From Desulfobacterales bacterium (GTDB lineage Bacteria > Desulfobacterota > Desulfobacteria > Desulfobacterales > UBA5852): a stretch of 64,000 nt of DNA. A program made the translations under genes and the position numbers. The notes below the pieces were generated by a model, which was given only the letters and a program-made list of their open reading frames with translations, had not been told where the DNA came from and did not search any database. The stretch spans positions 1,088,001 through 1,152,000 of the forward strand of contig CAXXVS010000003.1 in the NCBI GenBank assembly GCA_963674755.2, given 5' to 3'. This document shows positions 59,605-62,766 of the stretch, one piece after another. The first letter of the stretch is position 1. Each line of letters opens with the position of its first letter.

Positions 59605-59785
59605 AAACAGGGGGTGCGTGGCGTGCGGCGAGTCCGGGCGGTCATTCCGCGGCGGGAGAGAAGGAATTGCACCCGTTCCCCGGTCGGTCGGGCCGGGTCC
59701 GTTCAACCGGCTGAATCCGTATGATCCCCACCATTTTTTTGTTGACCCTCTTCCCGAAACAGTCTATATCGTAGGTCTCAATTTC

Positions 59786-59863
59786 GGGGGTGTAGTTCAG
59801 TTTGGTTAGAACGCCGGCCTGTCACGCCGGAGGTCGCGAGTTCGAGTCTCGTCGCTCCCGCCA
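59786..59863 (+). tRNA. tRNA-Asp(GTC)
   Basis: CCGGC-CTGTCAC-GCCGG anticodon arm, GTTCGAGTC, CCA; TTGACC-N17-TATATC upstream. Confidence 0.97.
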
Positions 59864-59909
59864 CGAAAATAAAGGCCTGTTACCGGTTGGTGACAGGCTT
59901 TCGTTATTT

Positions 59910-60161
59910 ATGGCTTACACTGTTTACATACTGGAGAGTGAGCGCACGGGCCGATATTATGTAGGGTCGACGGCAGATGTGGAGGAGCGCTTGACCCGCC
60001 ACAACCAGGGCCGATCTAAGTATACGAAAAGCGGTATCCCCTGGAAGGTGGTCTACACTGAGCAATGCGAAACGCGCGCTCAGGCCGTACGCCGTGAGAA
60101 ACAGATTAAGGGGCGAAAATCGCGGGCCTATATCGAAGATTTGGTTAGAACGTCCCGCTGA
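59910..60161 (+). CDS. Small GIY-YIG nuclease family protein (83 aa)
   Basis: YTVYIL...YYVGST...RLTRHN...YT..PWKVVY.E...A.RREKQIK. Confidence 0.9.
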   Translation: MAYTVYILESERTGRYYVGSTADVEERLTRHNQGRSKYTKSGIPWKVVYTEQCETRAQAVRREKQIKGRKSRAYIEDLVRTSR

Positions 60162-60204
60162 CCAGCGGGAAGGTCGCGAGTTCGAGTCTCGTCGCTCCCG
60201 CCAC
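60140..60204 (+). repeat. Partial tRNA-Asp copy with a substituted anticodon arm
   Basis: TTTGGTTAGAACG and the 34-nt AGGTC...CGCCAC are identical to tRNA-Asp; the middle is replaced by TCCCGCTG-AC-CAGCGGGA. Confidence 0.92.
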
Positions 60205-60210
60205 AAACAG

Positions 60211-60250
60211 AAACAGGGACTTAGAAGCGATTCTGAGTCCCTTGTTTTTT
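60211..60250 (+). terminator. Rho-independent terminator
   Basis: AGGGACTTAGAA-GCGA-TTCTGAGTCCCT followed by TGTTTTTT. Confidence 0.7.
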
Positions 60251-60429
60251 GCCTCAATTCTTGCGATTCCAACCCTATTTCCAACCCCCGTAAGTCGACG
60301 CCGCTTTGGTCTTAGGTCTTGATTTGATGGCGATCGTGATTTACAAATAAGTTAAAGTAATTTCATAATAACCTTCACTGAATTCCGGCTCGTTCAATCT
60401 TCCTTAGTAATTAGCTGTCATTTGAGGAT

Positions 60430-61155
60430 ATGATGAACAATACATGTAAAATGCCTGATATCGGCGATTCCCCTTGGGACTATCCAATGTATACCGCCGC
60501 TGAGGCGGCAAGGTTCGTTGGTCTATCGTCCGGTCGCGTGCGTAGATGGATAAAAGGCTACAGCTATAAATATGAGAAATCAGAAAATGTTTTTGAGGTT
60601 AAACACCAAAAACCAGTAATTAAAAGAAGTGCTCCGCCAGACTCATGCTATGCTTCATTTGTTGATCTGATTGATCTTTTGTTTGTTAAGCGTTTTTTAA
60701 ATTACGGCTTAAGCTTACAAAAAGTCAGGTCAGCCCTTGTAGAAGCAACTCAAATACTTGGTACGAATCATTTTGCCAGGGAATCATTTTTTACAGACGG
60801 AAGAAACATATACTTAGAAGTTAAAGAAAGTGGAGATGCCATATTAGAACTACTCTCCGGCGGGCAATGGGTTATTTCATCAGTTATCCGCCAACTTTCT
60901 CACCAAATCGACTTTGATCAGCCATGCGGTATTGCTAGAAGATGGTATCCATTAGGGAAGAATGGCCTAATTGTGCTTGATCCTGCAATTTCCTTTGGAA
61001 GACCAATTATTAAAAAGAAAAATATCACGACATTAAACGTGTATGATTTTTTTAAAGGCGAAAACGAAGATATCGATAGAGTTTCTAAATGGATGAACAT
61101 CAGCGAGAATGAAGTTAAGGCCGCCATTCAATTTGAGCAACAAATTGCTGCATGA
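60430..61155 (+). CDS. HTH + DUF433 antitoxin-like protein (VapB45-like)
   Basis: YTAAEAARFVG..RRWIKG, SFVDLI, VLDPAISFGRP, EVKAAIQFE. Confidence 0.8.
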   Translation: MMNNTCKMPDIGDSPWDYPMYTAAEAARFVGLSSGRVRRWIKGYSYKYEKSENVFEVKHQKPVIKRSAPPDSCYASFVDLIDLLFVKRFLNYGLSLQKVRSALVEATQILGTNHFARESFFTDGRNIYLEVKESGDAILELLSGGQWVISSVIRQLSHQIDFDQPCGIARRWYPLGKNGLIVLDPAISFGRPIIKKKNITTLNVYDFFKGENEDIDRVSKWMNISENEVKAAIQFEQQIAA

Positions 61156-61532
61156 GATTCTTCGTCGATAATAATCTTAGTGTAAATATTGTGCTTGGCT
61201 TAAGGGCATTTGGGGAAGATGTTACACACTTAACCGAATGTTTCCCACCTGAAGTACAAGATGTCGAATTGTTAAAATATATTGGTGAAAAAGGGTGGTT
61301 TTTAATAACAAGGGACGAAAGAATTCGATACAATGTTGCAGAGTTTGCCGCACTAAAGAGATATAAGGTCGGTGCTTTTTTTATAGGTGGAAAGAATAGG
61401 GGCCGATGTGAGTTAATTCGGCAAATTGTCAGAAATTGGCCGCGCATAAAAGAACAAGCCGCAAAGAATAGAACACCCTTTGCATACAAGGTACCCCCTA
61501 CTGGTACTAAGTTTAAAAAATACCCACTTTAA
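61152..61532 (+). CDS. PIN-like domain toxin (VapC45/DUF5615-like)
   Basis: MRFFVDNNL, D.ELL, LITRDERIRY..E; ATGA overlap with the upstream gene. Confidence 0.78.
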   Translation: MRFFVDNNLSVNIVLGLRAFGEDVTHLTECFPPEVQDVELLKYIGEKGWFLITRDERIRYNVAEFAALKRYKVGAFFIGGKNRGRCELIRQIVRNWPRIKEQAAKNRTPFAYKVPPTGTKFKKYPL

Positions 61533-61586
61533 AATAAGGAGGCCCAGGGAACGACGGGAGGGGACGGGTTTGATGCGTTTTCCACC

Positions 61587-62470
61587 ATGCCACGTCAATC
61601 CCGATTGGACGCACCAGGCGCCCTGCACCATATCATCGTTCGCGGTATCGAGCGGCGCAACATCTTTGCCGACGATTGTGACCGATATGATTTTATCAAC
61701 CGGTTGGGCGTTATTGTTAAAGAGACTTATACCGTCTGTTTCGCCTGGGCCCTGCTTCCCAACCATTTTCATCTTTCCTCTGCCAAGAGGACAGCTACTT
61801 CCTGGAGTTGGTGCGCTATATCCATTTGAATCCGCTAAGAGCCAAGTTGATCCCGGATATGAATGCCCCTGGTCGATATCCCTTTTGCGGCCGTAGCGTC
61901 ATCATGGGCCAAACCCAACAATCCTGGCAAGATATCGATAAAGTGCTCAGCTATTTCGGAAAGCAAAGGGGGCCAGGGCGGCGGAGCTACCGCGCGTTTG
62001 TCTCGAAAGGAATAGAGCAGGGAAGACGATCGGATTTCACCGGAGGCGGATTGATTCGGAGCCAGGGTGGCTGGGAGGCGGTCAAAAGCCTACGAAAAAC
62101 CGGAGATCACCGCGAAAGCGATGAACGTATCCTTGGCGATAGCGTTTTCGCCAAAAAAGTGCTGGCATAAAGTGAGGAGGTCTTGGAGCGAAAGTATGCC
62201 CTGCAAGCAAGGGGCATTGGCATTGAAGACATGGCCGAACGCGTGGCACATTTGCTCGGAATGACCTACGATGAGGTATGGCTTCCCGGAAAATACCAGA
62301 AACAGGTAGCTGCACGCAGCCTGTTGTGTTTTTGGGCGGTAAACGAATTGGGATTCAGCGTGACCGCCCTTGGTAAAAAATTAGGTATTTCCGTGCCTGC
62401 CATCAGCAAGTCGGTACGGCGTGGCGCTGCGATCGCTCACGAAAATAGCTATATGATTTTCCGAAGTTAA
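61587..62470 (+). pseudogene. REP-associated (Y1 HUH) tyrosine transposase pseudogene with C-terminal HTH
   Basis: MPRQSRLD..LHHIIVRG, NHFHL, then an apparent deletion/frameshift to LCQEDSYFLELVRYIHLNP; premature TAA at 62168. Confidence 0.85.
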
Positions 62471-62499: not shown

Positions 62500-62766
62500 C
62501 CTGTGGGAGTCGGATCAACCCATAGTACTCTGAGACGGTCGCGCCGATTACATGGGGAAGGGGTTGACAGTGGTACGCAGCCCTCAAAGGAAACTCGTAC
62601 CGGACAAAGTCGGGCTGGAACACTACGAGCCAACCTCACTGAGGGGAACAGCAACGTTCCAAAACTGGAATCGCGGAAGCGAGTACCATTGAGGAGCCCG
62701 GTGCGGGAATACCGCACGCCGGGATCTGTGCGGGGGGTGCCGGGTAACCGGCATTCCTACCGCGAC
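62500..62766 (+). mobile_element. Group II intron remnant (DII/DIII-like region, DV, DVI; no DI, IEP deleted)
   Basis: DV GAGCCCGGTGCGGGAATACCGCACGCCGGGATCT (62694-62727); DVI GGGGGTGCCGG-GTAA-CCGGCATTCCTACC ending CGAC; upstream CATGGGGAAGGGG..GACAG DIII-like motif. Confidence 0.82.

Follow-up and report, generated by a model that had tools for sequence, protein, structure and literature searches.

In this study, we revisited a stretch of 64,000 nucleotides from a Desulfobacterales bacterium (GenBank assembly GCA_963674755.2, contig CAXXVS010000003.1, positions 1,088,001 to 1,152,000 of the forward strand), which as a whole is called the window here. Behind its tRNA-Asp gene, the only one in the whole 6.7-Mb genome, lies a small cassette made up of a terminator-like hairpin (hairpin 1), a gene for an 83-aa GIY-YIG nuclease and a partial second copy of the tRNA, in which an 18-nt palindrome (PAL) stands where the 17-nt anticodon arm would be. 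An initial sequence-only reading had listed the intact tRNA, the hairpin, the nuclease gene and a terminator, and all of them were found at their places (Table 1). Judged by its sequence, the cassette is real, selected and probably mobile, and it has the look of a tiny selfish element of a kind not described before.

The tRNA-Asp locus and its empty counterpart

Table 1. Features of the tRNA-Asp locus (window coordinates) and, in the last row, tRNA duplications elsewhere in the genome (G000)
Feature	Coordinates	Strand	Basis or remark
Promoter-like site of the tRNA gene, TTGACC-17-TATATC	59742..59770	+	By eye; not in consensus-scan list; putative function
tRNA-Asp(GTC), intact	59786..59863	+	ARAGORN; Rfam RF00005, 67.6 bits
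Left direct repeat, tRNA positions 44-76	59831..59863	+	Sequence comparison
Insert of 340 bp, by comparison with the G001 empty site	59864..60203	+	Ends slidable within the 33-nt repeat
Hairpin 1, terminator-like, part of the cassette	59872..59901	+	Fold and terminator scan
83-aa single-domain GIY-YIG gene, Slx1/UPF0213-like fold; stop within PAL	59910..60161	+	
D-block: copy of D-loop and 3' D-stem strand to tRNA position 26; encodes LVR and start of T	60140..60152	+	
PAL, TCCCGC-core hairpin (7-bp stem, GACC loop) with NTS-like core, in place of tRNA positions 27-43	60153..60170	+	
Right direct repeat, tRNA positions 44-76 with CCA	60171..60203	+	
Terminator, outside the cassette; directly behind the tRNA in the G001 empty site	60209..60251	+	Terminator-like stem 60215-60242
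Attachment-site (att)-type duplications marking islands (G000)	C1:82002-82048; C2:169777-169823, 286679-286732, 636458-636501, 1900062-1900106, 1972153-1972197		

The copy consists of two blocks split by PAL and is not one contiguous duplicated tRNA segment. Its first block (13 nt) is an exact match of 59801-59813, which bears out the claim that the last codons of the nuclease gene are tRNA D-loop sequence. From 60171 onwards, the identity of 34 nt through T-arm, 3' acceptor strand and CCA that had been described is present as well, and is made up of 33 nt of tRNA and one base of the flank. It had also been proposed that the palindrome forms an 8-bp stem with a 2-nt loop and the TGA stop codon at its apex. 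A hairpin does occupy the position of the arm; however the proposed pairing exists in the text of the sequence only, and in the computed fold the TGA (60159-60161) spans the top of a 7-bp stem and its loop. Between the direct repeats the GIY-YIG open reading frame (ORF) stands alone, with no recombinase gene in the ORF list or the domain search. A contig from a public run spans 59835-60194, both repeats included, with zero differences, and the structure of the insert is therefore not an assembly artefact. No Shine-Dalgarno sequence is evident before the nuclease ORF, and its transcripts probably come only by read-through from the promoter-like site in front of the tRNA gene, which is host sequence.

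Empty and occupied loci could be compared within the genus. A second genome of the genus (G001) is without the insert; from its own tRNA onwards, 1432 nt are 88% identical to window positions 60116-61546, the same terminator and DUF433 gene included. Because G001 carries the same flank behind its tRNA, we show here, by comparison of the two sequences, that the window equals an empty tRNA-Asp locus plus 340 bp between 33-nt repeats, the insert being a terminator hairpin, a selected GIY-YIG gene, the D-block and PAL. The difference may be a gain in the window or a loss in G001. As terminator and flank are shared with G001, the right direct repeat is most likely the original 3' end of the tRNA gene, which has been displaced. 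That the 3' part of the copy is host sequence also fits with a comparison of 17 full copies over 8 alleles, a set to which the window and one duplicate belong: 14 of them are identical over 33 nt to their own local tRNA.

Among 30 tRNA-Asp loci fetched from 61 related genomes, most lead straight into a terminator, and a pattern search found matches in 7 of the 61 genomes, with none for the reversed control. Close homologues of the nuclease are present in 18 of 401 genomes of the class, in 16 genera, a count to be read with the loss of such repeats from incomplete assemblies in mind. Several loci appear to be in decay: in G004, an internally deleted gene lies between the same hairpin 1 and the PAL copy; G015 has a tandem copy without a gene, G008 and G026 have decayed genes, and run X3 shows a gene-less or decayed state in near kin. 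The empty site in the same genus, this patchy spread, the tandem and decayed copies and the tRNA-linked homologues described below support the earlier proposal of a minimal, integrase-free selfish element of tRNA genes.

Islands and prophages that integrate into tRNA genes duplicate the 3' end of the tRNA and keep one gene intact, and the cassette resembles them in both respects. Two such origins have to be considered, in which the nuclease would be no more than a passenger: a satellite moved in trans by a helper tyrosine integrase, and the att remnant of an island that has been deleted. The 33-nt repeat is of the kind left by integration at a tRNA 3' end, and behind the terminator lies a direct repeat, TTCCAACC (60267-60286, plus strand), which we take to resemble an integrase arm site; repeats like it are found behind tRNA-Asp in many loci, both occupied and empty. 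However, the cassette differs from such islands in its 340 bp, the absence of an integrase, a two-block copy with an internal replacement, and upstream half-copies. The six ordinary duplications of att type found elsewhere in this genome (Table 1) are single blocks of 44-54 nt that start in the anticodon arm and lie 2-27 kb from their gene, and the copy is unlike any of them. (The last one listed is an Arg fragment directly after a tRNA-Met gene.) Of 22 loci, just 1 has an integrase domain downstream, there beyond another tRNA; window and empty site share terminator and downstream flank; and the D-block, the half-copies and the covariation in PAL would be left unexplained. We therefore regard an integrase-made origin as very improbable.

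The nuclease, PAL and their distribution

The protein is a single GIY-YIG domain (PF01541, E 3.8e-17, 62.8 bits against a cut-off of 22.6). Its predicted structure reaches a predicted local distance difference test (pLDDT) score of 92.8, and among solved structures the UPF0213 proteins 1zg2 and 1ywl, together with Slx1, come closest to it in sequence and fold. The catalytic residues Y6, Y17, G19, R27, H31 and E63 are intact, and in 104 aligned rows the first three are invariant and the others at least 90% conserved. Domain search and structure model agree that a separate DNA-binding domain is absent. The family presumably corresponds to CDD entry cd10449. The pattern of substitutions indicates that the 83-aa protein is under purifying selection: in 136 pairs from 17 genes, the proportion of synonymous differences (pS) is 0.89 and that of nonsynonymous differences (pN) 0.26, with internal stops in 2 of the 17 genes, and in near strains all 8 listed differences within the ORF are synonymous (22 more differences over the whole stretch are not itemised).

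The end of the gene is unusual in that it is also tRNA and hairpin sequence. Most close homologues (among the matches listed, n=120) end in LVRTSR or a near variant, which is the translation of the D-block and the start of PAL. In 48 loci gene and PAL are fused, and in 45 of these the stop codon falls within PAL. Among the 17 genes, conservation of third codon positions is 0.48 at 16 conserved degenerate codons of the gene body, 0.82-1.0 at V79-S82 and 0.59 at R83, which contains the covarying PAL base. Because third positions at V79-S82 exceed the gene body in conservation, the end of the gene is held as DNA. An in-frame distance of 339 bp between the two D-loop blocks had also been pointed out, and this turns out to be chance; the distance is divisible by 3 in 19 of the 48 fused loci, where about 16 are expected, and in 6 of the 48 no stop codon interrupts the reading frame through the tRNA.

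The exchange of the anticodon arm for the palindrome recurs and is more than chance, as 31 Asp copies with tRNA positions 27-43 swapped were found among 52 hairpins flanked on both sides by tRNA identity (window and one duplicated genome included). At tRNA-Asn, PAL takes the place of positions 25-34 or 39-46, not of the anticodon arm. In a set of 59 PAL matches, of which three look spurious and were left in, pairs 6 and 7 are standard in 58 and 53 cases, pair 6 being C-G in 26, T-A in 21 and A-T in 9; the search pattern partly fixed TCCCG..CGGGA and left these two pairs free. In these matches, the upper PAL pairs covary. The loop varies freely, and the TCCCG..CGGGA core is kept and is common to loci from Desulfobacterota to Bacteroidota. 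The genome also holds 170 dispersed palindromes with this core, compared with 10-121 for permuted arms. A tRNA origin of these was considered and rejected, with both 8-nt flanks found in a tRNA for 3 of the 170 only. Several families of repeats similar to repetitive extragenic palindromes (REPs) share the TCCCGC..GCGGGA core, often paired about 70 nt apart (e.g. G000:C2:78154-78440 and C3:2585172-2585270).

It had been suggested that the copy may be transcribed as a tRNA mimic that regulates the nuclease. More generally, a tRNA-like RNA could regulate or decoy the nuclease, the ribosome or an anticodon nuclease, in line with the CCA end ahead of a terminator, the size of PAL, which is about that of an anticodon arm, and the stop codon within it. 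However, mimicry is a weak explanation because the 5' acceptor strand is missing and T-arms are often overwritten, namely by second palindromes in 9 downstream copies (starting at +6 in five and at +12 in four). The copy has no cloverleaf and no Rfam tRNA match at E<=1, in 20 of 61 downstream copies the identity to the tRNA breaks off no more than 13 nt from PAL, the loop of PAL is free to vary, and CCA and terminator are merely the displaced native end. In addition, the Ssn nuclease SsnA, to which we return below, is reported to be without RNA binding (PMC11893778). A functional tRNA-like RNA is thus hardly credible.

That homologues of the nuclease sit beside tRNA genes or copies, as had been anticipated, is borne out by a same-strand tRNA within 400 nt upstream in 40 of 66 genome loci, with isotypes that include Asp, Val, Met, Ala, Pro, Ser, Tyr, Phe and Ile; tandem copies occur too. 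Among metagenome loci, tRNA-Asp lies upstream in 41 of 61 with room for it, PAL at the gene end or downstream in 59 of 75, and more than one nuclease gene in 14 of 79; the corresponding class loci have tRNA-Asp upstream in 10 of 11 and PAL downstream in 9 of 14. In a control set of 20 SRM-type GIY-YIG loci of the same class (SRM being the flank motif of Ssn genes), none had a tRNA within 500 nt. Cassette homologues span Desulfobacterota, Nitrospirota, Bacteroidota and others, and the wider homologue group has 1139 representatives at E<=1e-10, the tRNA link having been assessed for the closest ones only. No relative of the family was found in viral contigs and no homologue in plasmids at 1e-8; phages gave 11 weak matches. 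One locus labelled as archaeal (L003) has a Desulfobacterota-type Asp cassette, which reflects misbinning or transfer.

A proposed nicking element at tRNA genes

In many genomes the unit has a longer form with PAL at both ends, in the order native tRNA positions 1-26, PAL, some 7-9 nt, filler, intact tRNA, terminator, nuclease gene, D-block, PAL and native positions 44-76. Such an upstream half-copy precedes the intact tRNA in 22 of 61 Asp loci with room for it, usually as positions 1-26, PAL, a few tRNA bases and filler. On its sequence, the cassette can be read as a PAL-ended unit that was dropped into an anticodon arm and brought a replacement tRNA along. Among 28 half-copies, 22 keep tRNA identity to the right of PAL for 6-13 nt only, with 7 as the commonest length and 9 also frequent. 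PAL-bearing copies of the neighbouring tRNA-Val are found in L012 (2435-2830), L069 and L071, some nearly full-length and called as tRNA by ARAGORN, and this suggests action in trans. A second lineage, 40% identical and with the same PAL core, resides at the single tRNA-Asn gene of the window's genome (G000:C1:1292640-1295850, minus strand, outside the window). Its two GIY-YIG genes (pS 0.14, pN 0.04) are separated by 2.5 kb in which other ORFs lie; the lineage also has two upstream half-copies, the first directly behind a promoter-like site, and four PAL copies that replace approximately positions 25-34.

The closest parallel is with the Ssn nucleases. It has been reported that SsnA binds a hairpin with a TCCCGC..GCGGGA core in single-stranded DNA only, requires a C after the palindrome and cuts 5' of the hairpin, that the mutants Y6A, Y17A and E64A are inactive, and that the enzyme limits transformation in Neisseria, acting in vivo (PMC11893778). 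From the numbering of NTS75 in that paper and its review file, the cut can be derived to lie about 9 nt 5' of TCCCGC. Like the cassette protein, Ssn (cd10448) is a single-domain GIY-YIG protein, of about 90-100 aa, with Y6, Y17 and a Glu at 63/64; its gene stands beside or between hairpins with the same core and a free loop, and its insertion sequence (IS)-like layout may, as its authors suggest, be mobile (PMC11893778). On the minus strand, the window's copy matches the left arm of the NTS hairpin at 10 of 12 positions and has a C directly after the palindrome, and a cut equivalent to that of SsnA on this strand would fall near tRNA position 52, where half-copies end. Unlike Ssn, the cassette is tied to tRNA genes, its hairpin overwrites tRNA sequence and the gene end often overlaps the hairpin; in the main text of the Ssn paper the word 'tRNA' has no occurrence (PMC11893778).

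The window protein is 34% identical to an SRM-flanked protein and matches the SRM-flanked protein of L091 with an E-value of 1.5e-8 in a small set. In the best tree, 13 Ssn-like rows are set apart from the tRNA-type rows by two 100/99 branches, and UPF0213-type proteins are on the other side of a well-supported branch; this tree holds 49 rows (37 from a first tree and 12 Ssn-like), uses a simpler model and takes SRM-flanked proteins of the same class as Ssn references. From both trees, rows with stops, Ns or short matches were removed, and the first was poorly resolved and had not converged. A union of the Ssn-like rows with 9 Asp-type rows was not rejected in the approximately unbiased test (p 0.069). 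Ssn-type genes with SRM repeats are themselves present in the class (L091, L233-L252), and Ssn-type genes occur in 25 of 201 genomes. By analogy, the cassette nuclease probably works like Ssn; we do not file it as Ssn, given that SRM fails and that it forms a separate clade in the best tree. In a review reply to the same paper, Ssn is placed as sister to SLX1-like proteins that are 'sparsely characterized in bacteria' (PMC11893778).

Taken together, we favour, at a probability of roughly 0.55, that the cassette is a selfish, integrase-free element of tRNA genes whose nuclease binds PAL as single-stranded DNA and nicks beside it, as SsnA does at NTS. Following the SsnA analogy, low levels of the nuclease would be made by read-through of the tRNA terminator. 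The enzyme would bind PAL where DNA is single-stranded, as in replication, transcription or incoming DNA, probably on the minus strand, and would nick some 7-13 nt from PAL, inside the tRNA-identical 3' part. Host recombination through the tRNA-homologous end could then lead to insertion, duplication, amplification or excision of the unit at tRNA genes. PAL would be the enzyme's own recognition tag and the end of the element, not an RNA arm, and it would be seen in spare copies and never in the working gene because only outcomes with one intact tRNA survive. The window would represent a streamlined state without the left half-copy.

A number of observations weigh against this proposal. The junction counts share descent and are not independent events, and deletion bias could explain them. 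No base flanking PAL is common to all isotypes, and a PAL-specific nickase would have to ignore the 170 dispersed palindromes. In the window's copy, SRM has no match with up to two substitutions, and the three that are needed are a level also reached by unrelated stretches; SRM was found in 0 of 125 loci of close homologues (duplicates included) versus 12 of 20 Ssn-like loci. The strand of action is uncertain because the right arm of NTS fits the plus strand better (9 of 12) than the minus strand (7 of 12). With UPF0213 and the structure-specific Slx1 as nearest folds, the enzyme may read branch points and not sequence. The empty site in G001 could be a loss instead of the state before insertion, and no exact excision, circle or back-joined junction was seen in four contig sets, which hold contigs only. 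A skip from 59864 to 60267 in run X3 was not counted as an excision joint (it includes filler, and one side has 20 nt). Lastly, the proposal does not account for hairpin 1, which speaks to a small degree for a break at the anticodon loop.

In reverse complement, the 3' arm of hairpin 1 (59890-59898) is identical to tRNA positions 30-38. An exact 9-mer complement to the anticodon region is present in 10 of 20 Asp loci, compared with a maximum of 6/9 in all 20 sites without the cassette hairpin; matches of at least 8/9 occur in 27 of 76 metagenome loci and 3 of 12 class loci. Among non-Asp isotypes the comparison was positive for L011 only (1 of 17 loci). An obligatory RNA switch made by this arm is not supported, since it is absent in many loci and since the fold with this pairing imposed is less stable, by 7.5 kcal/mol, than the tRNA together with the terminator. 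As so many loci are without such a match, the complement is a feature of a lineage, and it is possibly a fold-back scar or an optional promoter. In L154:65-222, L008:2845-3003, L001, L002, L165 and L182, an inverted tRNA piece (about positions 17-38) precedes the nuclease gene; it reads as a TTGACA box with a 17-nt spacer, in several of these loci the second box is followed at about 6 nt by a start codon (by eye), and in its sequence is like a leaderless promoter made of tRNA.

Such inverted pieces, as well as the exact removal of positions 27-43 by PAL in the 31 Asp copies, would also fit homing, in which tRNA genes without a cassette are cut by the nuclease in the DNA of their native anticodon arm and acquire the cassette during repair, PAL being the destroyed target; the complement in 10 of 20 Asp loci, or the longer piece in L154 and L008, may then be the scar of the break. 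Empty cognate alleles exist in G001 and other relatives. There is also a precedent in SegB of T-even phages, a GIY-YIG homing enzyme whose gene, like the cassette's, lies by tRNA genes of many isotypes and which promotes inheritance and segmental amplification of tRNA regions (PMC2330249, PMC13096335). However, SegB is a phage-borne double-strand cutter, and a hairpin-bearing tRNA copy is not noted for it in the available text of PMC13096335. The earlier suggestion that the swapped copy is immune is weak because an intact target stays next door: the occupied window allele keeps the native arm, if that is the target, about 100 bp upstream, and occupied loci usually retain an intact tRNA with the full target where upstream DNA was assembled, which would leave the donor without immunity. 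Immunity would require no conserved sequence, yet the PAL core is fixed, as in a binding site, and common to Desulfobacterota through Bacteroidota; other tRNA segments are replaced at tRNA-Asn; and an 83-aa protein without a separate DNA-binding domain is a poor fit. Homing is unlikely in our view.

It could also be that the host keeps nuclease and PAL as a domesticated guard, which cuts incoming PAL-bearing single-stranded DNA or shields or remodels a hotspot of tRNA integration. Purifying selection on the gene, the effect of SsnA on transformation in vivo (PMC11893778) and the many tRNA att duplications of this genome would agree with this, as would the 3' flanks of tRNA-Asp, which differ between relatives and have an island-like appearance. 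However, selfish enzymes are likewise under purifying selection while they spread, and the patchy occurrence in 18 of 401 genomes, the frequent decay, tandem arrays and gene-less copies fit the birth and death of a parasite. A guard function is accordingly quite unlikely, and the nicking element remains the reading we prefer.

Among other known systems, REP elements with their REP-associated tyrosine transposases (RAYTs) and the IS200/IS605 family use HUH tyrosine transposases, which join DNA, whereas a GIY-YIG hydrolase cannot join strands. Unlike these, the cassette targets a tRNA gene and would need host recombination. The likeness lies in a small enzyme that acts at its own single-stranded hairpins, with gene-less hairpin copies spread in trans (PMC11893778, discussion). 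The Slx1/UPF0213 proteins (PDB 1zg2, 1ywl; PMC1564403) are the best match in sequence and fold and are likewise minimal domains without auxiliary parts; unlike for the cassette, a link to tRNA genes, a hairpin partner or mobility is not mentioned for them in the available text of PMC1564403. GIY-YIG cassettes that reside at tRNA genes and carry hairpin-swapped copies were not found described in the literature covered, to which subscription journals and bioRxiv supplements did not belong.

Further downstream on the plus strand, 60430-61532 holds an HTH/DUF433 gene and a PIN_10/DUF5615 gene, likely a toxin-antitoxin pair, and the same two genes lie behind the empty tRNA site of G001. They are followed by a broken-up gene similar to RAYTs (61587-62470; NF047646, E 2e-4, below cut-off) and a match to group II intron domain V/VI (62692-62766; 39.4 bits, just short of the gathering score), near which no reverse transcriptase ORF was seen in the ORF list.

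Implications for small mobile elements and Slx1-like nucleases

What has been tested at this locus is the matching empty site, the tracking of alleles by the copies, the fit of junction distances to an SsnA-like cut, and the anti-anticodon arm. A bolder version of our proposal, which we hold tentatively and at less than even odds, is that elements of this kind form a class of autonomous mobile elements of about 340 bp in many phyla, in which an 83-residue single-strand nickase writes its own recognition hairpin into tRNA genes, with action in trans as well, and in which movement comes about when the nick primes host recombination between homologous tRNA sequences. This would be mobility without a transposase, integrase, intron or reverse transcriptase, by a route that needs just one nick and a universal homology of 30 nt, and the cassette would be among the smallest self-spreading genetic elements known. 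It would also account for a class of pseudo-tRNA calls (L052 'tRNA-Stop', L069, L071), and the toolbox of Ssn enzymes as site-specific cutters of single-stranded DNA could gain an 83-aa member. The Slx1-like nucleases of bacteria, a large group that is unstudied and uncharacterised, would gain a function and a substrate that can be tested, and these proteins could be linked to the origin of Ssn/NTS and REP-like palindromes. The suggestion that pairs of nuclease and hairpin began as mobile elements (PMC11893778) would thereby become testable.
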